Shown: positions 2,740 to 63,165 of the stretch, one piece after another
Position numbering within the stretch: the first letter of the stretch is position 1
How the letters are laid out: each line of letters begins with the position of its first letter
Sequence record: MK977694.1
Length of the DNA stretch: 64,000 nucleotides
DNA from: Escherichia phage vB_EcoM-Sa45lw
Reading direction: 5' to 3' (one strand)
Made by a program: the position numbers and the translations under genes
Notes under the pieces: model-generated
Told to the model about the DNA's origin: nothing
The model's input: the letters and a program-made list of their open reading frames with translations, nothing else
The model's database searches: none

Positions 2740-2771
2740 AATGAATGGGGAGAAATCCCCATCCTGCTTAA

Positions 2772-4396
<1,625 letters not shown>

Positions 4397-4397
<1 letters not shown>

Positions 4398-4627
4398 TGG
4401 AAGGTTTAATTGAAGCTATTAAATCAAACGACCTCGTAGCCGCTCGTAAATTATTTGCTGAAGCCATGGCTGCAAGAACGACTGATTTAATCAAAGAAGA
4501 AAAAATCACTATCGCTCGTAATTTCTTAATCGAGGGTGAAGAACCTGATGACGAGGATGACGACGAAGATAGCGATGATGATAAAGACGACAAAAAAGAC
4601 AAAGACTCTGACGAGGATGATGAATAA
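4397..4627 (+). CDS. 67: Prohead core protein gp67 with poly-acidic C-terminus
   Basis: 76 aa, highly acidic D/E-rich tail; ATGA-coupled to gene 20 stop; position as T4 gene 67. Confidence 0.85.
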
Positions 4628-5052
4628 TGATTCTAATCCCTGAAACTCATGAATTAGTTCTCGAGAATGTCGAAGCACTTATTCCTGAAGCACAGGGTCG
4701 CTTTGACGAGTTGTCTTCTGCTTTAAATAAAGACGATATAAATAAAATTATCGAGAATATGCTTGATGATGAAACTGATTTAGCGGTTGCATTAGCTTCT
4801 ATTAATGAAAATATGCCGTTAAATGAATTTATCGTTAAACATGTTTCTGCCCGTGGTGAAATTACTCGCACTAAAGATCGCAAAACCCGCGAACGTAATG
4901 CATTTCAAACTACCGGGTTGTCTAAAGCAAAACGTAGACAAATTGCTCGTAAAGCTACCAAAACGAAGATTGCCAATCCAGCAGGTCAATCTCGTGCTCA
5001 GCGTAAGCGTAAAAAAGCTCTTAAACGCCGTAAAGCATTAGGATTAAGCTAA
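4627..5052 (+). CDS. 68: Prohead core protein gp68
   Basis: 141 aa, basic C-terminus; position and size as T4 gene 68. Confidence 0.85.
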
Positions 5053-5690
5053 TGAATGAACCCCAATTGCTAATTGAAACTTGGGGTCAACCTGGCGAAA
5101 TTATTGATGGTGTGCCAATGCTTGAATCCCATGATGGGAAAGACTTAGGTTTAAAACCTGGTTTATACATCGAAGGAATATTCATGCAAGCAGAAGTCGT
5201 CAATAGAAATAAACGTCTTTATCCAAAACGTATATTAGAAAAAGCGGTAAAAGACTATATTAATGAGCAAGTTTTAACTAAACAAGCTCTCGGAGAATTA
5301 AATCATCCTCCACGCGCTAATGTTGACCCGATGCAAGCCGCTATCATTATAGAAGATATGTGGTGGAAAGGAAATGACGTATACGGACGAGCTCGTGTTA
5401 TTGAAGGTGACCATGGTCCTGGAGATAAATTAGCAGCTAATATTCGTGCCGGATGGATTCCAGGAGTTTCTTCTCGTGGATTAGGTTCATTGACTGACAC
5501 AAATAAAGGTTATCGTATCGTAAACGAAGGATTCAAATTAACTGTAGGTGTTGATGCAGTATGGGGTCCAAGTGCTCCAGATGCATGGGTAACTCCTAAG
5601 GAAATTACCGAATCACAGACGGCGGAAGCCGATACAAGTGCCGATGACGCCTATATGGCTCTCGCAGAGGCCATGAAAAAAGCGTTATAA
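5052..5690 (+). CDS. 21: Prohead core scaffold protein and protease gp21
   Basis: 212 aa, T4 gp21 length; position between 68 and 22. Confidence 0.93.
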   Translation: MNEPQLLIETWGQPGEIIDGVPMLESHDGKDLGLKPGLYIEGIFMQAEVVNRNKRLYPKRILEKAVKDYINEQVLTKQALGELNHPPRANVDPMQAAIIIEDMWWKGNDVYGRARVIEGDHGPGDKLAANIRAGWIPGVSSRGLGSLTDTNKGYRIVNEGFKLTVGVDAVWGPSAPDAWVTPKEITESQTAEADTSADDAYMALAEAMKKAL

Positions 5691-5693
5691 ATA
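5686..5693 (+). promoter_or_regulatory. T4-type late promoter upstream of gene 22
   Basis: TATAAATA overlapping the gene 21 stop, 28 bp upstream of the gene 22 ATG. Confidence 0.5.
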
Positions 5694-5720
5694 TTATTAT
5701 CTAAACAACAGGACTACAAA

Positions 5721-6530
5721 ATGCTTAAAGAACAACTGATTGCCGAAGCGCAGAAAATTGATGCTTCCGTTGCTCTTGATAGTATTTTCGAATCAGTTAA
5801 TATTTCTCCGGAAGCAAAAGAAACTTTCGGCACTGTATTCGAAGCTACCGTCAAGCAGCACGCCGTTAAATTAGCTGAATCTCATATCGCTAAAATTGCT
5901 GAAAAAGCAGAAGAAGAAGTAGAAAAAAATAAAGAAGAAGCAGAAGAAAAAGCTGAGAAGAAAATCGCTGAGCAAGCTTCTAAATTCCTTGACCATCTTG
6001 CAAAAGAATGGCTCACTGAAAATAAATTAGCAGTAGATAAAGGTATCAAAGCCGAACTGTTTGAATCCATGCTTGGTGGATTGAAAGAGCTCTTCGTTGA
6101 ACACAACGTTGTTGTTCCAGAAGAATCAGTTGATGTTGTAGCTGAAATGGAAGAAGAACTGCAAGAACATAAAGAAGAATCAGCTCGTCTGTTCGAAGAA
6201 CTCAATAAGCGTGACGCATATATCAATTATGTGCAGCGTGAAGTGGCATTGAGCGAAAGTACTAAAGATCTGACTGAGTCTCAAAAAGAAAAAGTCTCTG
6301 CTCTGGTCGAAGGTATTGATTATTCAGATGCATTCTCAAGCAAATTGAGTGCCATCGTAGAAATGGTGAAGAAATCTAATAAAGATGAAAGCACTATTAC
6401 TGAGAGTATAAATACTCCTGATACTGAAGCAGCCGGACTGAATTTCGTCACTGAAGCTGTAGAAGATAAATCTGCACAAGGTGCAGAAGATATTGTAAGT
6501 GTATATGCGAAAGTCGCATCTCGTTTCTAA
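5721..6530 (+). CDS. 22: Prohead core scaffold protein gp22
   Basis: 269 aa, acidic coiled-coil-like composition; T4 gp22 size and position. Confidence 0.93.
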   Translation: MLKEQLIAEAQKIDASVALDSIFESVNISPEAKETFGTVFEATVKQHAVKLAESHIAKIAEKAEEEVEKNKEEAEEKAEKKIAEQASKFLDHLAKEWLTENKLAVDKGIKAELFESMLGGLKELFVEHNVVVPEESVDVVAEMEEELQEHKEESARLFEELNKRDAYINYVQREVALSESTKDLTESQKEKVSALVEGIDYSDAFSSKLSAIVEMVKKSNKDESTITESINTPDTEAAGLNFVTEAVEDKSAQGAEDIVSVYAKVASRF

Positions 6531-6548
6531 TTTTAAAGGTTAACACAA

Positions 6549-8114
6549 ATGACTATCAAAACTAAAGCTGAACTTTTGAACAAATGGAAGCCATTACTGG
6601 AAGGTGAAGGTTTACCGGAAATTGCTAATAGCAAACAAGCGATTATCGCTAAAATCTTTGAAAACCAGGAAAAAGATTTCCAGACAGCTCCGGAATATAA
6701 AGACGAAAAAATTGCTCAGGCATTCGGTTCTTTCTTAACAGAAGCTGAAATCGGTGGTGACCACGGTTACAATGCTACCAACATCGCTGCAGGTCAGACT
6801 TCTGGCGCAGTAACTCAGATTGGCCCAGCTGTTATGGGTATGGTACGTCGTGCTATTCCTAACCTGATTGCTTTCGATATTTGTGGTGTTCAGCCAATGA
6901 ACAGCCCGACTGGCCAGGTATTCGCGCTGCGCGCAGTATATGGTAAAGATCCAATCGCTTCCGGCGCTAAAGAAGCATTCCACCCAATGTATGGTCCAGA
7001 TGCAATGTTCTCTGGTCAGGGTGCTGCTAAGAAATTCGCTGCTTTGAAAGCAAGTGATACTCTTGAAGTCGGAACTATTTACACTCACTTCTTCCAGGAC
7101 ACTGGTACTGTGTATCTGCAAGCTACAGCAGCTAAACAAATTGATTCAGGCGCATCTGACGCAGACAAATTAGATGCTGAAATTAAGAAACAAATGGAAG
7201 CTGGTGTACTGGTAGAAATCGCTGAAGGTATGGCTACTTCTATCGCTGAACTTCAAGAAGGTTTTAACGGTTCTACCGATAACCCGTGGAATGAAATGGG
7301 CTTCCGTATCGATAAACAAGTTATCGAAGCTAAATCTCGTCAGCTGAAAGCTGCTTACTCTATTGAATTAGCACAAGACCTCCGCGCTGTTCATGGTATG
7401 GATGCTGATGCTGAACTGTCTGGTATTCTGGCTACCGAAATTATGCTGGAAATCAACCGTGAAGTTGTTGATTGGATTAACTACTCAGCACAGGTTGGTA
7501 AATCTGGTATGACCCTGACTCCGGGTTCTAAAGCTGGTGTATTTGACTTCCAGGACCCAATCGATATTCGTGGTGCTCGCTGGGCTGGTGAATCCTTTAA
7601 AGCTCTGTTGTTCCAGATTGACAAAGAAGCAGTTGAAATTGCTCGTCAGACCGGTCGTGGTGAAGGTAACTTCATTATCGCTTCCCGTAACGTAGTTAAC
7701 GTTCTGGCTTCAGTTGATACCGGCATTTCTTATGCTGCACAGGGTCTGGCAACTGGCTTTAACACTGATACTACCAAGTCAGTATTTGCTGGTGTTCTGG
7801 GTGGTAAATACCGTGTATATATCGACCAGTATGCTAAACAGGATTATTTCACTGTAGGTTATAAAGGTCCGAACGAAATGGATGCTGGTATTTACTACGC
7901 TCCATATGTAGCTCTGACTCCACTGCGTGGTTCTGATCCGAAGAACTTCCAACCGGTAATGGGGTTCAAAACTCGTTACGGTATCGGTATCAACCCATTT
8001 GCAGAATCCGCTGCTCAGGCTCCGGCTTCTCGCATTCAGAGTGGTATGCCTTCTATCCTGAACAGCCTTGGTAAGAACGCTTACTTCCGCCGTGTATATG
8101 TTAAAGGTATCTAA
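6549..8114 (+). CDS. 23: Major capsid protein gp23
   Basis: 521 aa, T4 gp23 length; sequence-biased codon usage typical of a highly expressed gene. Confidence 0.98.
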   Translation: MTIKTKAELLNKWKPLLEGEGLPEIANSKQAIIAKIFENQEKDFQTAPEYKDEKIAQAFGSFLTEAEIGGDHGYNATNIAAGQTSGAVTQIGPAVMGMVRRAIPNLIAFDICGVQPMNSPTGQVFALRAVYGKDPIASGAKEAFHPMYGPDAMFSGQGAAKKFAALKASDTLEVGTIYTHFFQDTGTVYLQATAAKQIDSGASDADKLDAEIKKQMEAGVLVEIAEGMATSIAELQEGFNGSTDNPWNEMGFRIDKQVIEAKSRQLKAAYSIELAQDLRAVHGMDADAELSGILATEIMLEINREVVDWINYSAQVGKSGMTLTPGSKAGVFDFQDPIDIRGARWAGESFKALLFQIDKEAVEIARQTGRGEGNFIIASRNVVNVLASVDTGISYAAQGLATGFNTDTTKSVFAGVLGGKYRVYIDQYAKQDYFTVGYKGPNEMDAGIYYAPYVALTPLRGSDPKNFQPVMGFKTRYGIGINPFAESAAQAPASRIQSGMPSILNSLGKNAYFRRVYVKGI

Positions 8115-52288: not shown

Positions 52289-52296
52289 TATAAATA
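52289..52296 (+). promoter_or_regulatory. T4-type late promoter upstream of gene 34
   Basis: TATAAATA 35 bp upstream of the gene 34 ATG. Confidence 0.6.
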
Positions 52297-52330: not shown

Positions 52331-55300
52331 ATGGCCGAGATTAAAAGAAAGTTCAGAGCAGAAGACGGTCTGGACGCAGGTGGTGATAAAATAATCAACG
52401 TAGCTTTAGCTGATCGTGCCGTAGGAACTGACGGTGTAAACGTTGATTACTTAATTCAAGAAAACACAGTTCAACAATATGATCCAACTCGTGGATATTT
52501 AAAAGATTTTGTAATCATTTATGATAACCGCTTTTGGGCTGCTATAAATGATATTCCAAAACCAGCAGGAGCTTTTAATAGCGTACGATGGAGAGCGTTA
52601 CGCACTGATGCAAACTGGACAACTGTTTCGTCAGGACCTTATCAATTAAAATCAGGCGAATCGATTTCAGTTAACACCGCAGCGGGTAATGACATTACAT
52701 TTACTTTGCCATCTTCTCCAATTGATGGTGATACTATCGTTCTCCAAGATATTGGAGGAAAACCTGGAGTTAACCAGGTTTTAATTACAGCTCCGGTACA
52801 AAGCATTGTAAACTTTAGAGGTCAACAAGTACGCTCAGTACTAATGACTCATCCAAAATCACAGATAGTTTTAATTTTTAGTAATCGTCTGTGGCAAATG
52901 TATGTTGCTGATTATAGCAGAGAAGCTGTAGTTGTAACGCCTGCAAGTCTCTATCAGGCGCAATCAAACGATTTTATCGTACGTAGATTTACTTCTGCTT
53001 CAGCAATTAATATTAAACTTCCAAGATTTGCTAATCATGGCGATATTATTAATTTCGTTGATTTGGATAAATTAAATCCACTTTATCACACAATTGTTAC
53101 CACATACGATGAAACGACTTCAGTACAAGAAGTTGGAACTCATTCCATTGAAGGTCGTACATCTATTGATGGTTTCTTGATGTTTGATGATAATGAGAAA
53201 TTGTGGAGATTGTTTGACGGGGATAGTAAAGCACGTTTACGCATTATAACGACTAATTCTAATATTCGTCCAAATGAAGAAGTCATGGTATTTGGCGCAA
53301 ATAATGGAACAACCCAAACAATTGAACTTCAGCTTCCAACTGATATTTCTATCGGTGATACTGTTAAGATTTCCATGAATTATATGAGAAAAGGACAAAC
53401 AGTTAAAATCAAAGCTGCCGGTGAAGATAAAATTGCTTCTTCAGTTCAATTGCTGCAATTTCCAAAACGTTCAGAATACCCACCTGAAACTAAATGGGTG
53501 ACTGTTCAAGAATTAGTTTTTAATGGCGAAACCAATTATGTTCCAGTTTTACAGCTTGCTTATATCGAAGATTCCGATGGAAAATATTGGGTTGTACAGC
53601 AAAACGTTCCAACTGTAGAAAGAGTAGACTCTTTAAATAATTCTACTAGAGCAAGATTAGGCGTAATTGCTTTAGCTACACAGGCTCAAGCTAATGCTGA
53701 TCTAGAAAATTCTCCACAAAAAGAACTGGCAATTACTCCAGAAACGTTAGCTAATCGTACTGCTACAGAAACTCGTAGAGGTATTGCAAGAATAGCAACA
53801 ACTGCGCAAGTAAACCAGGATACCACATTCTCTTTTGCAGATGACCTTATCATCACTCCTAAAAAGTTGAATGAAAGAACTGCTACAGAAACTCGTAGGG
53901 GTGTCGCTGAAATTGCTACGCAGCAAGAAACAAACACAGGAACAGATGATACAACCATCATTACTCCTAAAAAGCTTCAAGCTCGTCAAGGTTCTGAATC
54001 ATTATCTGGTATTGTAACTTTTGTATCTACTGCAGGTGCTACTCCGGCTTCTAGCCGTGAATTAAATGGTACAAATGTTTATAATAAAAACACTAATAAC
54101 TTAGTTGTTTCACCTAAAGCCTTGGATCAGTATAAAGCTACTCCAACGCAACAAGGTGCAGTAATTTTAGCAGTTGAAAGTGAAGTAATTGCTGGACAAA
54201 GCCAAGAAGGATGGGCAAATGCGGTTGTAACGCCAGAAACGTTACATAAAAAGACATCAACTGATGGAAGAATTGGTTTAATTGAAATTGCTACGCAAAG
54301 TGAAGTTAATACAGGAACTGATTATACTCGTGCAGTCACTCCTAAAACTTTAAATGACCGTAGAGCAACTGAAAGTTTAAGTGGTATAGCTGAAATTGCT
54401 ACACAAGTTGAATTCGACGCAGGCGTCGACGATACTCGTATCTCTACACCATTAAAAATTAAAACTAGATTTAATAGTACTGATCGTACTTCTGTTGTTG
54501 CTCTATCTGGATTAGTTGAATCAGGAACTCTCTGGGACCATTATACCCTTAATATTCTTGAAGCAAATGAGACACAACGTGGTACACTTCGTGTGGCTAC
54601 ACAAGTTGAAGCTGCTGCCGGAAAATTAGATAATGTTTTAATAACTCCTAAAAAGCTTTTAGGTACTAAATCTACCGAATCGCAAGAAGGTGTTATTAAA
54701 GTTGCAACTCAGTCTGAAACTGTGGCTGGAACGTCAGCAAACACTGCTGTATCTCCAAAAAATTTAAAATGGATTGTACAGAGTGAACCTACCTGGGCAG
54801 CTACTACTGCGATAAGAGGTTTTGTTAAAACTTCATCTGGTTCAATTACATTTGTCGGTAATGATACAGTCGGTTCTACCCAAGATTTAGAACTGTATGA
54901 GAAAAATAGCTATGCAGTATCACCATATGAATTAAACCGTGTATTAGCAAATTATTTACCGTTAAAAGCAAAAGCTGCTGATAGTAATTTATTGGATGGT
55001 CTAGATTCATCTCAGTTCATTCGTAGGGATATTGCACAGACGGTTAATGGTTCACTAACCTTAACCCAACAAACGAATCTGAGTGCCCCTCTTGTATCAT
55101 CTAGTACTGCTACGTTCGGTGGATCAGTTTCAGCAAATAGTACATTAACTATTTCTAATACTGGAACAGCAACTCGATTGATTTTTGAGAAAGGACCTCA
55201 AACTGGAACAAACCCAGCCCAAACGATGACTGTTAGAGTGTGGGGAAATCAATTTAGTGGGGAATTAGATACAACACGTTCTACCGTATTTGAAGTTAGT

Positions 55301-56200
55301 GATGAAACATCTAGTCATTTTTATTCTCAGCGCAATAAAGCCGGAAATATAACATTTAATATCAACGGTACAGTAACACCGATAAATGTTAATGCTTCAG
55401 GAACATTGAATGCAAATGGCGTAGCAACATTTGGTAATTCAGTCACTGCAACTGGTGAAATTATTTCTCGAAGCGCAAATGCTTTCCGTGCTATTAACGG
55501 AAATTACGGTTTCATTGTTCGCAATGATGGATCAGTAACGAATTTTATGCTTACTGCATCGGGTGATCAGACTGGTGGATTTAATGGATTACGCCCATTA
55601 GCTATTAATAATGCATCTGGCCAAGTAACGATTGGTGAAAGCTTAATCATTGCCAAAGGTGCTACTATAAATTCAGGTGGTTTGACTGTTAACTCGAGAA
55701 TTCGTTCTCAAGGTACTAAAACATCTGACTTATATACACGTGCGCCAACATCTGATACTGTAGGATTCTGGTCAATTGATATTAACGATTCAGCTACTTA
55801 TAACCAGTTCCCAGGTTATTTTAAAATGGTTGAAAAAACTAATGAAGTGACTGGTCTTCCATATTTAGAACGTGGCGAAGAAGTTAAATCTCCTGGTACA
55901 CTGACTCAGTTTGGTAACACACTTGATTCGCTTTACCAAGATTGGATTACTTATCCAACAACGCCAGAAGCGCGTACCACTCGCTGGACACGTACATGGC
56001 AGAAAACCAAAAATTCTTGGTCAAGTTTTGTTCAGGTATTTGATGGAGGTAACCCTCCTCAACCGTCTGATATCGGTGCTTTACCATCTGATAATGCTAC
56101 AATGGGTAATCTTACTATTCGTGATTTCTTACGAATTGGTAATGTTCGCATTATTCCTGACCCAGTGAATAAAACTGTTAAATTTGAATGGGTTGAATAA
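52331..56200 (+). CDS. 34: Long tail fibre proximal subunit gp34
   Basis: 1289 aa, T4 gp34 length; internal tandem repeats. Confidence 0.95.
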   Translation: MAEIKRKFRAEDGLDAGGDKIINVALADRAVGTDGVNVDYLIQENTVQQYDPTRGYLKDFVIIYDNRFWAAINDIPKPAGAFNSVRWRALRTDANWTTVSSGPYQLKSGESISVNTAAGNDITFTLPSSPIDGDTIVLQDIGGKPGVNQVLITAPVQSIVNFRGQQVRSVLMTHPKSQIVLIFSNRLWQMYVADYSREAVVVTPASLYQAQSNDFIVRRFTSASAINIKLPRFANHGDIINFVDLDKLNPLYHTIVTTYDETTSVQEVGTHSIEGRTSIDGFLMFDDNEKLWRLFDGDSKARLRIITTNSNIRPNEEVMVFGANNGTTQTIELQLPTDISIGDTVKISMNYMRKGQTVKIKAAGEDKIASSVQLLQFPKRSEYPPETKWVTVQELVFNGETNYVPVLQLAYIEDSDGKYWVVQQNVPTVERVDSLNNSTRARLGVIALATQAQANADLENSPQKELAITPETLANRTATETRRGIARIATTAQVNQDTTFSFADDLIITPKKLNERTATETRRGVAEIATQQETNTGTDDTTIITPKKLQARQGSESLSGIVTFVSTAGATPASSRELNGTNVYNKNTNNLVVSPKALDQYKATPTQQGAVILAVESEVIAGQSQEGWANAVVTPETLHKKTSTDGRIGLIEIATQSEVNTGTDYTRAVTPKTLNDRRATESLSGIAEIATQVEFDAGVDDTRISTPLKIKTRFNSTDRTSVVALSGLVESGTLWDHYTLNILEANETQRGTLRVATQVEAAAGKLDNVLITPKKLLGTKSTESQEGVIKVATQSETVAGTSANTAVSPKNLKWIVQSEPTWAATTAIRGFVKTSSGSITFVGNDTVGSTQDLELYEKNSYAVSPYELNRVLANYLPLKAKAADSNLLDGLDSSQFIRRDIAQTVNGSLTLTQQTNLSAPLVSSSTATFGGSVSANSTLTISNTGTATRLIFEKGPQTGTNPAQTMTVRVWGNQFSGELDTTRSTVFEVSDETSSHFYSQRNKAGNITFNINGTVTPINVNASGTLNANGVATFGNSVTATGEIISRSANAFRAINGNYGFIVRNDGSVTNFMLTASGDQTGGFNGLRPLAINNASGQVTIGESLIIAKGATINSGGLTVNSRIRSQGTKTSDLYTRAPTSDTVGFWSIDINDSATYNQFPGYFKMVEKTNEVTGLPYLERGEEVKSPGTLTQFGNTLDSLYQDWITYPTTPEARTTRWTRTWQKTKNSWSSFVQVFDGGNPPQPSDIGALPSDNATMGNLTIRDFLRIGNVRIIPDPVNKTVKFEWVE
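53700..54780 (+). repeat. Degenerate tandem repeats (about 40 aa, 120 nt period) inside gene 34
   Basis: Repeated units ...TPKKL...(R/T)ATE(T/S)(R/Q)RG(V/I)A(E/R)IAT(Q/T)xE...; ACTGCTACAGAAACTCGTAG recurs at 53761 and 53881. Confidence 0.55.
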
Positions 56201-56208
56201 GAGGTATT

Positions 56209-57324
56209 ATGGAAAAATTTATGGCAGAGTTTGGACAAGGATATGTCCAAACGCCATTTTTATCGGAAAGCAATTCAGTAAGATATAAAATAAGTATAGC
56301 GGGTTCTTGCCCGCTTTCTACCGCAGGACCATACGTTAAATTTCAAGATAATCCTGTGGGAAGTCAAACATTTAGTGCAGGTCTTCATTTAAGAGTTTTT
56401 GACCCTTCTACAGGAGCATTGGTTGATAGTAAGTCATATGTTTTTTCTACTTCAAATGATACAACATCTGCTGCTTTTGTTAGTTTCATGAATTCTTTTT
56501 CAGGCAATAGACTTGTTGCTATATTAACTAGCGGAAAGGTTAATTTTCCTCCTGAAGTAGTATCTTGGTTAAGAACGGCAGGAACATCTGCTTTTCCATC
56601 TGATTCTTTATTGTCAAGATTTGACGTATCATATGCTGCCTTTTACACTTCTTCTAAAAGAGCTATCGCACTAGAGCATGTTAAACTGAGTAACAGAAAA
56701 AGCACAGATGACTATCAAACTATATTAGATGTAGTATTTGATAGTTTAGAAGATGTTGGAGCGACAGGATTTCCTAAAAGAACATATGAAAGCGTTGAGC
56801 AATTTATGTCAGCTGTTGGTGGAACTAATAACGAAATTGCCCGTCTACCTACAGCATCTGCAATAAGTAAACTTTCTGACTATAATTTAATTCCTGGAGA
56901 TGTTCTTTATCTTAAAGCACAACTATATGCTGACGCTGATTTATTAGCGTTGGGAACTACTAATATTTCAATTCGTTTTTATAATGCGTCGAATGGATAT
57001 ATTTCCTCGACACAAGCTGAGTTTACTGGACAGGCTGGGTCTTGGGAATTAAAAGAAGATTATGTAGTTGTTCCAGAAAATGCAGTTGGATTTACGATAT
57101 ATGCACAGAGAACTGCACAAGCAGGTCAAGGCGGTATGAGAAATTTAAGCTTTTCTGAAGTGTCAAGAAATGGTGGCATTTCAAAACCTGCTGAGTTTGG
57201 CGTCAATGGTATTCGAGTTAATTATATCTGTGAATCTGCTTCACCTCCGGATATAATGGTACTTCCTACGCAAGCATCGTCTAAAACTGGTAAAGTGTTT
57301 GGACAGGAATTTAGAGAAGTTTAA
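56209..57324 (+). CDS. 35: Long tail fibre hinge protein gp35
   Basis: 371 aa (T4 372); position. Confidence 0.9.
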   Translation: MEKFMAEFGQGYVQTPFLSESNSVRYKISIAGSCPLSTAGPYVKFQDNPVGSQTFSAGLHLRVFDPSTGALVDSKSYVFSTSNDTTSAAFVSFMNSFSGNRLVAILTSGKVNFPPEVVSWLRTAGTSAFPSDSLLSRFDVSYAAFYTSSKRAIALEHVKLSNRKSTDDYQTILDVVFDSLEDVGATGFPKRTYESVEQFMSAVGGTNNEIARLPTASAISKLSDYNLIPGDVLYLKAQLYADADLLALGTTNISIRFYNASNGYISSTQAEFTGQAGSWELKEDYVVVPENAVGFTIYAQRTAQAGQGGMRNLSFSEVSRNGGISKPAEFGVNGIRVNYICESASPPDIMVLPTQASSKTGKVFGQEFREV

Positions 57325-57329
57325 ACTGA

Positions 57330-57356
57330 GGGAGCCTTCGGGTTCCCTTTTTCTTT
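57330..57356 (+). terminator. Intrinsic terminator after gene 35
   Basis: GGGAGCC-TTCG-GGTTCCC followed by TTTTTCTTT. Confidence 0.6.
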
Positions 57357-57363
57357 ATAAATA
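57356..57363 (+). promoter_or_regulatory. T4-type late promoter upstream of gene 36
   Basis: TATAAATA 24 bp upstream of the gene 36 ATG, abutting the terminator. Confidence 0.6.
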
Positions 57364-57386: not shown

Positions 57387-58043
57387 ATGGCTGATTTAAA
57401 AGTAGGTTCAACAACTGGAGGCTCTGTCATTTGGCATCAAGGAAATTTTCCATTGAATCCAGCCGGTGACGATGTACTCTATAAATCATTTAAAATATAT
57501 TCAGAATATAATAAACCACAAGCTGCTGATAACGATTTCGTTTCTAAAGCTAATGGTGGTACATATTTAAATAAAGTAATTTTTAATAAAGGAATGACTG
57601 TTCCTGGTGCTGGGTCAGGTGACAACGGTATTTTTGCCGGTCCTGGTGATAATGCTACATATGATACTACAAATATGGATATTGTTTCATGGTATGGTAT
57701 CGGCTTTAAATCATCACAAGGGGCAGCAGGTAGAACTGTAGTAATTAACACACGAAACGGAGATATTAGCTCAAAGGGTGTAATTGAAGCATCACAAATA
57801 CGCGCAACTTCGTTATCACCAGTAAATAATTATGACCTTACGAGAAAAGATTATGTTGATGGGGCAATAAATATTGTTACAACAAATGCAAACTCTAGAG
57901 TATTACGCTCTGGAGACACTATGACAGGAAATTTAACTGCGCCAAACCTTTTTTCACAGAATCCTGCATCTCAACCCTCGCATGTTCCGCGATTTGACCA
58001 AATCGTAATTAAGGATTCTGTTCAAGATTTCGGCTATTATTAA
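57387..58043 (+). CDS. 36: Long tail fibre distal connector gp36
   Basis: 218 aa (T4 221); position. Confidence 0.9.
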   Translation: MADLKVGSTTGGSVIWHQGNFPLNPAGDDVLYKSFKIYSEYNKPQAADNDFVSKANGGTYLNKVIFNKGMTVPGAGSGDNGIFAGPGDNATYDTTNMDIVSWYGIGFKSSQGAAGRTVVINTRNGDISSKGVIEASQIRATSLSPVNNYDLTRKDYVDGAINIVTTNANSRVLRSGDTMTGNLTAPNLFSQNPASQPSHVPRFDQIVIKDSVQDFGYY

Positions 58044-58051
58044 GAGGACTT

Positions 58052-61000
58052 ATGGCTACTTTAAAACAAATACAATTTAAAAGAAGCAAAACGGCAGGTC
58101 AACGTCCAGCTGCTTCAGTATTAGCCGAAGGTGAATTGGCTATAAACTTAAAAGACCGTTTACTTTTTACTAAAGATGACCAGGGAAATATTATTGATTT
58201 AGGTTTTGCTAAAGGCGGTAGTATTGACGGGAATGTTATTCATAAAGGCAATTATAACCAAACTGGCGATTATACTTTAAACGGTACATTCACCCAGACT
58301 GGTAATTTTAATTTAACTGGTATTGCTCGAGTAACTCGTGATATTATTGCTGCTGGGCAGATTATGACTGAAGGCGGAGAACTTATTACAAAAAGTTCAG
58401 GTACATCACATGTTCGTTTTCATGATTCAGCTGACCGTGAACGTGGAATCATTTTTTCTCCTGCTAATGATGGATTAACTACACAAGTAATTAACATCAG
58501 AGTTCAAGATTACAAAGCTGGTTCAGAAAGCACTTTCGCTTTTAATGGAAATGGTTTGTTTTCTTCACCAGAAGTTTTTGGGTGGAAATCTGTATCAACT
58601 CCGGTAATTTATACCAATAAAGTTATCACCAATAAAAAAGTTAAAGATGATTATGACATCTATTCGATGGCAGATAATGTTCCATTATCTGAAAGCACTA
58701 CTGCTATTAATCATCTTCGTGTTATGCGTAATGCAGTTGGTTCTGGTATTTTCCATGAAGTTAAAGATAATGATGGAATAACATGGTATAGTGGAGATGG
58801 ATTAGACGCTTATCTTTGGTCATTTACTTGGAGCGGCGGAATTAAATCAAGTCACTCAATTTCCATCGGTTTAACACCCGGACCTAAGGATTACTCAATA
58901 TTAGGACCGTCTAGTATCGCTTTAGGAGATAATGATACTGGATTTAAATGGCATCAAGACGGATATTATTTCAGTGTTAATAATGGCACAAAAACGTTTT
59001 TATTTAGCCCTAGCGAAACAACTAGCCTAAGAAAATTTGTAGCTGGATATTCTACTAATGGAACCGATTTAACTACTCCTCCGACTGAAAACTATGCTCT
59101 TGCTACTGTCGTGACATATCATGACAATAACGCGTTTGGAGATGGTCAGACTCTTTTGGGGTATTATCAAGGCGGTAGATATCACCATTACTTTCGCGGA
59201 AGAGGAACAACTAATATTAATACTGCTGGAGGGTTATTAGTTACTCCTGGTAATATTGATGTTATTGGCGGTTCTGTTAATATCGATGGTAGAAATAATG
59301 CTTCTACAGCTCTGTTTAAAGGTAACACAACAGGTAGTAGTTCTGTGGATAACATGACAATTTCTGTGTGGGGTAATACATTTACTAATCCTAGCGAAGG
59401 TAATCGCAAAAATGTCATGGAAATTTCCGATGCAACTAGCTGGATGAGCTATATTCAAAGACTTACTACTGGTGAAGTAGAAATGAACGTTAACGGTTCA
59501 TTTGAATCATCTGGTGTTACTGCTGGAAATAGAGGAGTTCACACAACAGGCGAAATTTCATCTGGAGCAGTGAATGCTCTTCGCATTTGGAATGCAGATT
59601 ATGGAGCCATTTTTAGACGTTCAGAAGGTAGTCTTCATATTATTCCAACTGCTTACGGTGAAGGCAAAAATGGTGATATCGGTCCACTTCGTCCATTTAG
59701 TATTGCTTTGGATACTGGTAAGGTTGTTATTCCAGATTTAGAATCAAGTTATAACACGTTTGCTGCAAATGGCTACATTAAATTTGCTGGTCACGGCGCG
59801 GGTGCAGGTGGTTATGATATTCAGTATTCACAAGCTGCTCCTATTTTCCAAGAAATCGATGATGCTGCTGTAAGCAAATATTATCCTATTGTTAAACAGA
59901 AGTTTTTAAACGGTAAAGCTGTCTGGTCTTTAGGTACTGAAATTAATTCAGGTACATTTGTTTTACATCATCTAAAAGAAGATGGTTCACAAGGCCATAC
60001 ATCAAGATTTAATGCTGATGGTACAGTTAATTTCCCCGATAATGTTCAAGTCGGCGGCGGTGAAGCTACTATTGCTCGTAATGGTAATATCTTCTCTGAT
60101 ATTTGGAAAACATTTACTTCTGCCGGAGATACTACAAATATTCGCGATGCGATAGCTACTCGTGTTGCCAAAGAAGGCGATACGATGACTGGCAAATTAA
60201 TCGTTAGAAGAGGCTCTGACGCTATTAACATTGCTGCCGATGAAAATGATTCTTGCTATTTACTTGGAACATCGGGTGGAGCGAATTCATGGTACATCGG
60301 TAAAGGAGGAGCAGATGACACTGCTTCATTTTATAATTTCAAAACTACCGCAGGAATTACTCTTAATAGTGTTGGTGATATTGATTTTAACGTCAAAAAT
60401 CAAGCTACTGCAGCTTCATTAAATTTTTATCGTTTATATTTAAATGGAAGACAATGGACAGCTACACAAGGTCACGGCTATAATAATCAATGGCAAACAG
60501 AAGCCCCATTCTTCGTTGACTTTGGTGAATCTGTTCCGAAAGATAGTTATATGCCTATAATTAAAGGAAGAAGCCAAATCATTAACGAAGGATATGCCAC
60601 AAAGGCAGATTTTGGTATTATTCGATTGGGTGGAAATGCTACTTGGGGAAATGCAGTAATTCGTGTTGGTTCTGCGGAAAGCGGAGATAGCAGCCATCCT
60701 AATGCAATATTTGTGTTTCAGGCTAATGGTGATTTTAAAGCTCCGGCTGGCCTTCGTGCTGGTGTTAACTTGGGCGTCGGCACAATTCCAGTATGGGGTG
60801 GAGCATCTATCGCCATCGGGGATGATGATACCGGTTTAGTTCATGGCGGCGATGGTCGAATTAATATGTATGCTAACGCGCAGCATATAGCATCATGGGG
60901 CACGATGTATCAATCTCATCCAGGCCTTTGGGATTCAAATGGAGCTTTTTGGACAGAAGTTGGCAAAGCAATTATTTCTCATGGCCATTTAGTTCAGGCG

Positions 61001-61378
61001 AATGACAGCTATTCAACGTATGTCCGCGATGTTTATGTCCGCTCTGATATTCGTGTTAAAAAGGACCTAGTTAAATTTGAAAATGCTTCTGAGAAGCTTT
61101 CAAAAATTAATGGTTACACTTATATGCAGAAGCGAGGCCTAGATGAAGAAGGTAATCAGAAATGGGAACCAAACGCTGGGTTAATTGCTCAAGAAGTTCA
61201 AGCTATTTTACCTGAATTGGTTGAAGGCGATCAGGATAGTGAAGCTTTACTTCGTTTGAACTATAACGGTGTAATTGGTTTAAATACAGCTGCAATCAAT
61301 GAGCATACTGCAGAAATTGCAGAACTTAAGTCAGAGATTGAAGAGCTTAAAAAATTAGTTAAATCATTGTTAAAATAA
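58052..61378 (+). CDS. 37: Long tail fibre distal subunit gp37 with C-terminal intramolecular chaperone domain
   Basis: 1108 aa; conserved N-terminus [21 protein letters not shown]; C-terminal coiled-coil segment resembling autocleaving chaperone domains of other phage fibres. Confidence 0.92.
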
Positions 61379-61383
61379 AATGA

Positions 61384-61397
61384 GGGGCTTCGGCCCC
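61384..61397 (+). other. Stable UUCG-tetraloop hairpin abutting the gene 38 SD
   Basis: GGGGC-TTCG-GCCCC immediately followed by TTGGAGG and the gene 38 ATG; no U-run. Confidence 0.45.
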
Positions 61398-61409
61398 TTG
61401 GAGGTTTAT

Positions 61410-62204
61410 ATGGCAGTTGAAGGACCGTGGGTAGGATGGTCTGCGAGGGTACAAACTGGAGACCCTTGGATGGGTGGTGCCGCGCAGAGATTGAGAATGG
61501 GAATTCCGTTTTGGATGAGTAATATGATAGGTCGATCTGTTGAAGTAATTCACACCCTTGGAGCGGACCATAACTTTAATGGTCAATGGTTCCGAGATAG
61601 ATGTTTTGAGGCAGGTAGTGCACCTATAGTGTTTAATATTACCGGAAATTTGGTATCATATTCTAGAGACGTTCCTTTATTCTTCATGTACGGAGATACA
61701 CCTAATGAATATGTTCAGTTGAATATTGGTGGCGGCGTCCATATGTGGGGTAGAGGTGGACAAGGTGGATGGACTCATTCCGGCGGAGATGGTAATGGTC
61801 AACAAGGTGGTCATTGTATTCAAAATGACATCGGTGGACGATTAAGAATTAATAACGGTGGAGTAATTTGTGGTGGAGGTGGAGGTGGAGGTGGTATCGC
61901 TTATCGTCCTCACTCTGGTGCAAATTGGCAAGATATTGGTGGTGGTGGAGGAAGACCATTTGGCCCAGGAGGAGGCGGAGGTTATTCCGGCGGCGCAGCT
62001 TCTTATGATGGCCCAGGAGGTGGTTATAATTATGGTAATGCTCACTCTGGCCAGGGTGGTGATGCTGGCGCAAATGGACAAAATGCCTGGTATGATGGCG
62101 GTAAAGTTCTAAAAGTTGGAGCTGGTGGCGCTGCCGGATATGCTGTTATAGGATCAGCTCCAACATGGCAAAATGTTGGAGTAATATATGGTCCAAGGGT
62201 ATAA
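61410..62204 (+). CDS. 38: gp38 receptor-binding adhesin with glycine-rich motifs (T2-type)
   Basis: ORF track starts at 61380; ATG at 61410 follows GGAGG and gives 264 aa; poly-Gly blocks separated by short variable segments. Confidence 0.88.
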
Positions 62205-62235
62205 TTTTGAATAAATATCCTTAAAAGGAGGGTCT

Positions 62236-62892
62236 ATGGCAGCACCTAGAATATCATTTTCGCCCTCTGATATTCTATTTGGTGTTCTAGATCGCTTGTT
62301 CAAAGATAACGCTACCGGGAAAGTTCTTGCTTCCCGGGTAGCTGTCGTAATTCTTTTGTTTATGATGGCGATTGTTTGGTATAGGGGAGATAGTTTCTTT
62401 GAGTACTATAAGCAATCAAAGTATGAAACATACAGTGAAATTATTGAAAAGGAAAGAAATGCACGCTTTGAATCTGTCGCCCTGGAACAACTCCAGATAG
62501 TTCACATATCATCTGAGGCAGACTTTAGTGCGGTGTATTCTTTCCGCCCTAAAAACTTAAACTATTTTGTTGATATTATAGCATATGAAGGAAAATTACC
62601 TTCAACAATAAGTGAAAAATCACTTGGAGGATATCCTGTTGATAAAACTATGGATGAATATGCAGTTCATTTAAATGGACGTCATTATTATTCCAACTCA
62701 AAATTTGCTTTTTTACCAACTAAAAAGCCTACTCCCGAAATAAACTACATGTACAGTTGTCCATATTTTAATTTGGATAATATCTATGCTGGAACAATAA
62801 CCATGTACTGGTATAGAAATGATCATATAAGTAATGACCGCCTTGAATCAATATGTGCCCAGGCGGCCAGAATATTAGGAAGGGCTAAATAA
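62236..62892 (+). CDS. t: Holin T
   Basis: 218 aa, T4 holin length; single transmembrane segment VAVVILLFMMAIVWY with large C-terminal domain. Confidence 0.95.
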   Translation: MAAPRISFSPSDILFGVLDRLFKDNATGKVLASRVAVVILLFMMAIVWYRGDSFFEYYKQSKYETYSEIIEKERNARFESVALEQLQIVHISSEADFSAVYSFRPKNLNYFVDIIAYEGKLPSTISEKSLGGYPVDKTMDEYAVHLNGRHYYSNSKFAFLPTKKPTPEINYMYSCPYFNLDNIYAGTITMYWYRNDHISNDRLESICAQAARILGRAK

Positions 62893-63165
62893 TTATTTGT
62901 TCGTATACATCTCTAGATATCGATATACACCCTCAAAACCCTCGTTGAATTCGTCGATGAGGGTTTTCTTATCTTCTTGAGTTAATTCAGAAACAATTTT
63001 ACGGAATGAATTCTGATTTAATTTTCTACCTTCATGCATTACTCCAATCTCATTCAGAAATGCAATAAAATTAGCACGATTCTCAACAATATCTTCTCTG
63101 GAAAATTTAATCAAAATAGACGCAACAGTAATAATTTCACGAACTGTATCAATATTTTTATTCAT
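62893..63165 (-). CDS. asiA: Anti-sigma70 factor AsiA
   Basis: 90 aa, T4 AsiA length; N-terminus MNKNIDTVREIITVASILIKFSREDIVENRANFIAFLNEIG. Confidence 0.95.
   Translation of the reverse strand: MNKNIDTVREIITVASILIKFSREDIVENRANFIAFLNEIGVMHEGRKLNQNSFRKIVSELTQEDKKTLIDEFNEGFEGVYRYLEMYTNK

Follow-up and report, generated by a model that had tools for sequence, protein, structure and literature searches.

Gene 38 of Escherichia phage vB_EcoM-Sa45lw is predicted to encode a T2-type tail fiber tip adhesin, with OmpA as its most probable receptor

In the long tail fiber region of Escherichia phage vB_EcoM-Sa45lw (MK977694.1), gene 38 follows gene 37, and the locus raises the question of whether gp38 is a tip adhesin of the kind found in phages T2 and S16 or an assembly chaperone like T4 gp38, and, if it is an adhesin, which receptor it recognizes. 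Here we analyzed a 64,000-nucleotide (nt) stretch of this genome, referred to below as the window, in which an earlier note had described a host-range module formed by these two genes. An open reading frame (ORF) check returned the same coordinates and lengths for gp37 and gp38, including the gp38 ATG at 61410.

58052-61378, plus strand: gene 37, distal long tail fiber subunit, 1108 amino acids (aa) plus stop (from the ORF, phrog_1699 and identity to phage KIT03).
61410-62204, plus strand: gene 38, T2/S16-type tail fiber tip adhesin, 264 aa plus stop (from Pfam, PDB and fold matches).

By sequence and predicted fold, gp38 is an adhesin of the T2/S16 type rather than a T4 chaperone, which bears out what the note had proposed. 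It matches Pfam GP38 (PF05268) across the whole profile (positions 1-218 of 218; E = 1.3e-68, 231.6 bits, cutoff 25) and Gp38_N (PF21721) likewise (positions 1-40 of 40; E = 1.4e-19, 70.2 bits, cutoff 25), and it belongs to PHROG 2056, 'tail fiber protein; host specificity'. Among solved structures, it aligns with the receptor-binding domain of PP01 gp38 (9V85, E = 4e-73) and, end to end, with S16 gp38 (6F45_D, E = 1e-48). An AlphaFold (AF2) model generated with 72 homologs has a mean predicted local distance difference test score (pLDDT) of 86.4, and a Foldseek search of the PDB with this model matched only the same two entries, 9V85 (E = 1.6e-26, template modeling (TM) score 0.87 when normalized by target length) and 6F45_D (E = 9.5e-22, TM 0.82); the next match has an E of 5.

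If the locus were arranged as in T4, gp38 would merely be an assembly chaperone outside the virion and the gp37 C-terminus would bind the receptor. Some database records of close homologs (wV7, HY03 and T6) are indeed labeled 'distal long tail fiber assembly catalyst', but these labels are legacy annotation carried over by gene position. Alignment with the T4 chaperone, the outcome the note had set against its own proposal, was looked for by a direct BLASTP comparison, on which the contrast between the two proteins rests, and gave no similarity (best E = 0.85 over 20 residues), whereas gp38 does match solved virion adhesins. Pfam returned no family for T4 gp38, and NCBIfam gave zero matches for gp37, gp38 and T4 gp38. 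The gp37 proteins differ in the same way: in Pfam, T4 gp37 has Collar and Phage_fiber domains and no Peptidase_S74, while T2 gp37, like the gp37 studied here, has Peptidase_S74 instead. At the sequence level the T4-type arrangement is already refuted, and we give it next to no weight.

Two domains can be delimited in gp38.

61410-61544, plus strand: attachment domain at the gp38 N-terminus (aa 1-45), carrying W7, W20 and W35 (from PF21721).
61545-62201, plus strand: gp38 aa 46-264, specificity domain composed of a beta-helix and a polyglycine-II (PGII) sandwich (from RB32 identity, the model and the fold match).

The attachment domain is of the same subtype as in S16, AV119 and KIT03. Its three Trp residues are invariant in an alignment of seven phages and at least 90% conserved in an alignment of 72 sequences. 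In S16 gp38, three Trp residues insert into pockets of gp37 (Dunne et al. 2018, PDB 6F45). Gene 38 lies directly 3' of gene 37, whose product terminates in an intramolecular chaperone (IMC) domain, and the same layout is found in KIT03, AV119, FL08, RB32, T2 and S16. One 303-aa database protein (P0089) combines Peptidase_S74, Gp38_N and GP38 in a single chain; a miscalled ORF or a read-through at the 37/38 junction is the probable explanation, not a genuine fusion.

The glycine blocks separated by variable segments that had been described in gp38 are present as three runs, with variable stretches between them.

61872-61895, plus strand: G155-G162, octaglycine, central PGII helix, equivalent to S16 151-GGGGGGGG-158.
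61938-61952, plus strand: G177-G181, pentaglycine (GGGGGRPFG, invariant in the family).
61968-61982, plus strand: G187-G191, pentaglycine.
61896-61937, plus strand: I163-I176, variable, equivalent to PP01 loop B, with R166 and N172.
62079-62117, plus strand: Q224-V236, variable, equivalent to PP01 loop E, with Y228.

Glycine makes up 27% of gp38 and 40% of residues 107-245, yet the three runs are unlikely even at that composition: a run of at least eight glycines arose in 806 of 200,000 shuffles of gp38, and three runs of at least five in 201 of 200,000. In all six frames of the window, no run of five or more glycines was found beyond these three. The invariant glycines are G114-G117, G133-G134, G156-G160, G180-G181 and G216-G217, and the variable stretches fall in between. 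Loops B and E were mapped by hand, combining the alignment of gp38 with 9V85 and the published limits of the PP01 loops. N172, in loop B, is Lys in RB32. Among close relatives, the specificity domain varies most at Y228 (His in RB32, Ser in AV119 and FL08). GC content and GC skew are raised at 60500-62000; a foreign origin of this segment was considered and rejected because the load of GGN glycine codons in gene 38 explains the rise.

The start of gp38 at 61410 was preferred because a GGAGG Shine-Dalgarno sequence is located at 61400-61404 (plus strand), 5 nt 5' of this ATG, and because the ATG aligns with position 1 of the Gp38_N profile, with residue 1 of S16 gp38 and with the annotated start in KIT03. 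An ATG at 61380, which the program-made ORF list uses and which would give a 274-aa ORF, was rejected: it has no Shine-Dalgarno sequence, it sits beside a hairpin, and the family profiles and KIT03 start at 61410.

61383-61398, plus strand: UUCG-tetraloop hairpin (A-GGGGC-UUCG-GCCCC-U), 3' of the gp37 stop and 5' of the gp38 ribosome-binding site.

This hairpin lies within the 31 nt that separate gene 37 from gene 38, with a minimum free energy of -17.1 kcal/mol in a 60-nt context (z = -2.1). It is kept in KIT03, AV119, FL08, T2 and T4, and also in RB32 with a UUUG loop, while in S16 the stem carries compensatory changes (GAGCC-UACG-GGCUC). The Shine-Dalgarno sequence is 5' of the hairpin in T4 and 3' of it here. 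The hairpin probably belongs to the known T4-type intercistronic CUUCGG hairpins.

The other half of the module is the C-terminal end of gp37, a protein that matches phrog_1699, 'long tail fiber protein distal subunit', over its full length.

60794-61042, plus strand: gp37 aa 915-997, fiber tip after cleavage, with the gp38 docking surface, ending in DVYVR (from 6F45_A).
61043-61375, plus strand: gp37 aa 998-1108, IMC domain, Peptidase_S74 (from Pfam, S16 and PHROG).

The last 194 residues, comprising the tip and the IMC, match the S16 gp37 construct of 6F45 (E = 2.6e-44), and the last 208 aa are 50% identical to S16. The 111-aa IMC matches S16 gp37 on its own (E = 3e-32) and shows a weak match to the auto-cleaving domain of MYRF (7dc3, E = 0.018). 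Pfam Peptidase_S74 (PF13884) covers gp37 aa 998-1057 (profile positions 1-57 of 58; E = 1.2e-12, 48.4 bits, cutoff 22) and begins exactly at S998, the serine of the predicted cleavage site. A chaperone domain at the end of gp37 had been predicted in the earlier note from about residue 990 (61020-61378); the domain is present, but its start has to be moved to S998, giving 61043-61375. About 20 PHROG tail fiber families share with gp37 only this C-terminal Peptidase_S74 module.

The catalytic Ser-Lys pair of Peptidase_S74 is known from the literature on the endosialidase domain. Residues S998, D999, R1001 and K1003 (S-D-x-R-x-K) are invariant in this gp37, KIT03, AV119, RB32, T2 and S16, and the site DVYVR^SDIRVKK aligns with DLNVS^SDRRIKK, at which the last 113 residues of S16 gp37 are auto-cleaved to expose the gp38 docking surface (PMC7917993). 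The strand equivalent to the gp37 tip is the docking surface in S16 and in the fPS phages (PMC7917993), and the gp37 proteins of T2 and T6 undergo proteolytic processing before gp38 caps them (PMC3157838). By analogy, gp37 is predicted to cleave itself between R997 and S998. The C-terminal domain could otherwise be a retained coiled-coil or trimerization element that is not cleaved, and its terminal helix does carry a heptad pattern: in the last ~27 residues, the a/d positions read I/L/I/L/V/L in the sequence. Retention nevertheless seems very improbable to us, given that the cleavage motif is intact and invariant, that the S16 homolog is auto-cleaved and T2 and T6 gp37 are processed, and that the docking surface for gp38 is the one exposed by cleavage.

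Taking both proteins together, we propose that the module forms the distal, receptor-recognizing part of a Tequatrovirus long tail fiber of the T2 type and acts as follows, with a probability of roughly 0.88. Genes 36, 37 and 38 would be transcribed late, and gp37 would trimerize into a beta-helical fiber guided by its own IMC domain, aa 998-1108. Ser-Lys-type autoproteolysis, using S998 and K1003, would then detach the IMC between R997 and S998 and bare a flat fiber tip ending in DVYVR. One gp38 monomer would cap this tip through its helical N-terminal attachment domain, with W7, W20 and W35 entering gp37 pockets, presumably at a gp37:gp38 stoichiometry of 3:1. Residues 46-264 would form a small beta-helix with a PGII sandwich in which the glycine runs serve as a rigid core. 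The variable segments separating these runs would make up five loops at the distal end, which bind the receptor in the host outer membrane; this receptor for this allele is most probably OmpA with partial dependence on the lipopolysaccharide (LPS) core.

OmpA is the best supported receptor for this phage, and we regard it as likely because gp38 aa 46-264 are identical to RB32 at 216 of 219 positions (the differences being V46I, N172K and Y228H) and because the whole protein is 93-96% identical to AV119 and FL08. RB32, grouped with RB33 as carrying an OmpA plus LPS adhesin (Trojet et al. 2011), depends on OmpA and is affected by LPS composition, and moving its hypervariable block into RB5 transfers the OmpA/LPS specificity (PMC3157838); some dependence on the LPS core is most probable here as well. 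AV119 and FL08, which belong to the broad 'type 1', lose infectivity on a delta-ompA strain and tolerate all eight OmpA variants tested (Lutz et al. 2025, PMC12032242). The gp38 proteins of AV119 and FL08 are 95.5% and 93.2% identical to the one studied here, with 130 and 129 of 139 positions identical, respectively, over aa 107-245. The differences from AV119 in the specificity region are G107del, G108I, V110A, P167V, D200V, G201A, N207Q, A221G and Y228S. R165 and D217 are modeled OmpA contact residues in AV119 and FL08, R165 being the salt-bridge residue (PMC12032242), and both are kept here as R166 and D218. All three characterized relatives with at least 90% identity use OmpA. The mutant panel suggested in the earlier note (OmpC, OmpF, FadL and Tsx) is incomplete in this respect, as it lacks OmpA, which the closest characterized relatives use. 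The OmpA paper on LHE83 was not used, as this is a Bp7-like phage with a different gp38.

The same adhesin architecture could instead be directed at another porin, either OmpC, as in PP01 and S16, or Tsx, OmpF or FadL, after retargeting by loop substitutions. Several points favor this alternative or otherwise weigh against the proposal above. In RB68 gp38, a single substitution, Q206L, switches the phage from OmpF to OmpW (bioRxiv 10.64898/2026.04.02.716166), so one loop residue can be enough to change the porin. This gp38 departs from RB32 in two loops, by N172K in loop B and by Y228H in loop E, and from AV119 and FL08 at about nine positions of the specificity domain; the highly variable Y228 lies in the equivalent of the loop that governs specificity in PP01. 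KIT03, the nearest named phage, was isolated on E. coli O157:H7, and the sources of KIT03-like phages are O157:H7 or Salmonella settings. A literature search for the KIT03 receptor found no statement of it in the library searched, and the O157 phage PP01 uses OmpC, though its loops differ (64% identity). We infer both the gp37 cleavage and the receptor by homology, and a single-sequence AF2 model of gp37 aa 965-1108 reached a pLDDT of only 56, too poor for use. Against another porin stand the near-identity to the OmpA-dependent RB32, the shared use of OmpA by the three characterized relatives, the fact that AV119 and FL08 accept all eight OmpA variants although they too carry differences, and the low identity and different loops of PP01. 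On balance, a switch to another porin appears unlikely, and OmpA remains the receptor that we favor. It is similarly doubtful, though conceivable, that the substitutions at N172 and Y228 alter the set of OmpA alleles recognized, or even the porin. If true, this would explain the reported infection of both E. coli O157:H7 and Salmonella by KIT03-like phages, and it would represent a natural host-range switch of one or two residues in an otherwise fixed scaffold.

The comparison with RB32 also places a recombination joint within gene 38.

61557, no strand: approximate recombination joint relative to RB32 (from the step in identity).

Up to the end of gene 37 and over the first ~145 nt of gene 38, DNA identity to RB32 amounts to about 50%, and it is essentially 100% from about 61557 through gene t, with two mismatches in 61557-62300. 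At the protein level, RB32 gp38's N-terminal attachment domain is identical at only 25 of 47 positions and is of a different subtype, as are the tip and IMC of RB32 gp37 (the final 208 aa are about 31% identical). Judged from this step, the joint near 61557 separates an attachment domain matched to its gp37 from an RB32-type specificity domain. An attachment domain that fits gp37 combined with the specificity domain of RB32 represents a case of the 'lock-and-key' co-variation between the gp37 C-terminus and the gp38 N-terminus (Trojet et al., PMC3157838). In AV119, the attachment domain and gp37 tip are of the same subtype as here.

At least nine public contigs carry exactly this gp38 protein. 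On four of these (L008, L010, L011 and L012; GCA_041350275.1, GCA_019575835.1, GCA_015532365.1 and GCA_025011585.1), it is carried by complete T4-like phage contigs of ~167 kb that were deposited as part of bacterial assemblies under the name Salmonella enterica or E. coli. Gene 37 of L008 is called only as a 157-aa C-terminal remnant, reflecting a frameshift or an assembly error. On another contig (L009, Logan SRR31364082, locus 2757-6795), an identical gp38 follows a different gp37 of 1070 aa, and identity to the window, at 99.4%, begins only at 60157. The position of this break indicates another putative recombination joint, this one inside gene 37. Recombination within the operon may also have a substrate in gp37 itself, as an internal segment resembles gp34, which is encoded in the same operon; aa 418-561 (59303-59734) match PDB 4uxe/5nxf with an E of about 1e-12, and a Pfam domain lies within this segment.

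59396-59704, plus strand: gp37 aa 449-551, similar to the gp34 C-terminal trimerization region (PF21446, E = 5e-08, 33.9 bits, cutoff 27).

The module is set in the long tail fiber operon of a T-even phage (Tequatrovirus). Pfam gives matching names for gp36, the holin and the fiber domains, and the order 34-35-36-37-38-t-asiA is shared with T4, T2 and KIT03, as well as with RB32 and S16.

52331-56200: gene 34.
56209-57324: gene 35.
57387-58043: gene 36.
62236-62892: holin gene t.
62893-63165, minus strand: asiA.
57356-57363, plus strand: T4-type late-promoter box TATAAATA, 24 nt ahead of the gene 36 ATG.

Going by the T4 late-promoter consensus, the box at 57356-57363 is probably the start of the late transcript of genes 36, 37 and 38. 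Another TATAAATA box lies just 5' of gene 34, at 52289, and the window contains 19 matches to late-promoter boxes against 8.3 expected. A scan for sigma-70 promoters and terminators was uninformative, with 17 promoter-like sites against 19.7 expected. Directly 3' of gene 35, a second UUCG hairpin with a T-run (57328-57349) precedes the box at 57356-57363. The gene 35 product, the fiber hinge protein, matches ILEI (interleukin-like EMT inducer, PF15711) over aa 58-127 (30.1 bits, cutoff 27, E = 6.8e-07), and the same match is found among precomputed matches on related contigs. Elsewhere, the window shows the mosaic backbone typical of a Tequatrovirus. Positions 1-25000 match Shigella phage Sf23 best (98.1%), while the fiber module matches KIT03 best (98.8%), and zero records in the phage collection match the entire window exactly.

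The value of these results is mainly in annotation and practical use. The phage can be typed as T2-type, with gp38 as an adhesin and OmpA plus the LPS core as the predicted receptor, and this prediction is useful for choosing partners in a cocktail and for foreseeing resistance through loss of ompA. Engineering host range through the variable segments, as had been suggested for this gp38, is a valid aim, though it is already standard practice (PMC3157838; bioRxiv 10.64898/2026.04.02.716166). The biology itself is not new, as publications already cover the gp37 IMC/gp38 system, including its structure, modular recombination and application in host-range engineering. What is added here is the exact IMC boundary with a predicted cleavage site, OmpA as the predicted receptor, the position of the joint and the candidate tuning residues N172 and Y228.

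A near-identical copy of the module is already known from the published phage KIT03 (AP018932 / NC_054923). The whole 4153-nt module is 98.8% identical at the nucleotide level without gaps, and the flanking gene order is identical. KIT03 gp37 is identical at 1103 of 1108 positions (substitutions at 37, 119, 719, 943 and 1051), and its gp38 at 263 of 264 (Q26L). S16, of the genus Gelderlandvirus (PDB 6F45; Dunne et al. 2018), shares the architecture of an IMC-bearing gp37 and a gp38 with a three-Trp attachment domain, a beta-helix and a PGII sandwich with an octaglycine central helix, but identity is only 43-49%, the loops differ, and S16 uses Salmonella OmpC. PP01 gp38 (9V85; Terasaki et al. 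2026), which binds O157 OmpC, is the best solved match; it is nearly identical over aa 41-106, and its loops A-E differ in both sequence and length. T4 has a gp38 in the same position between genes 37 and t, but the protein is unrelated, and the receptor-binding tip belongs to T4 gp37 itself.

Outside the T-even phages, Schulz and colleagues reportedly described, in 2010, the C-terminal intramolecular chaperone domain of endosialidase. The Peptidase_S74/endosialidase IMC, a domain type also known from MYRF, is likewise terminal in a trimeric fiber protein, whereas the passenger here is a T-even fiber shaft rather than a sialidase.

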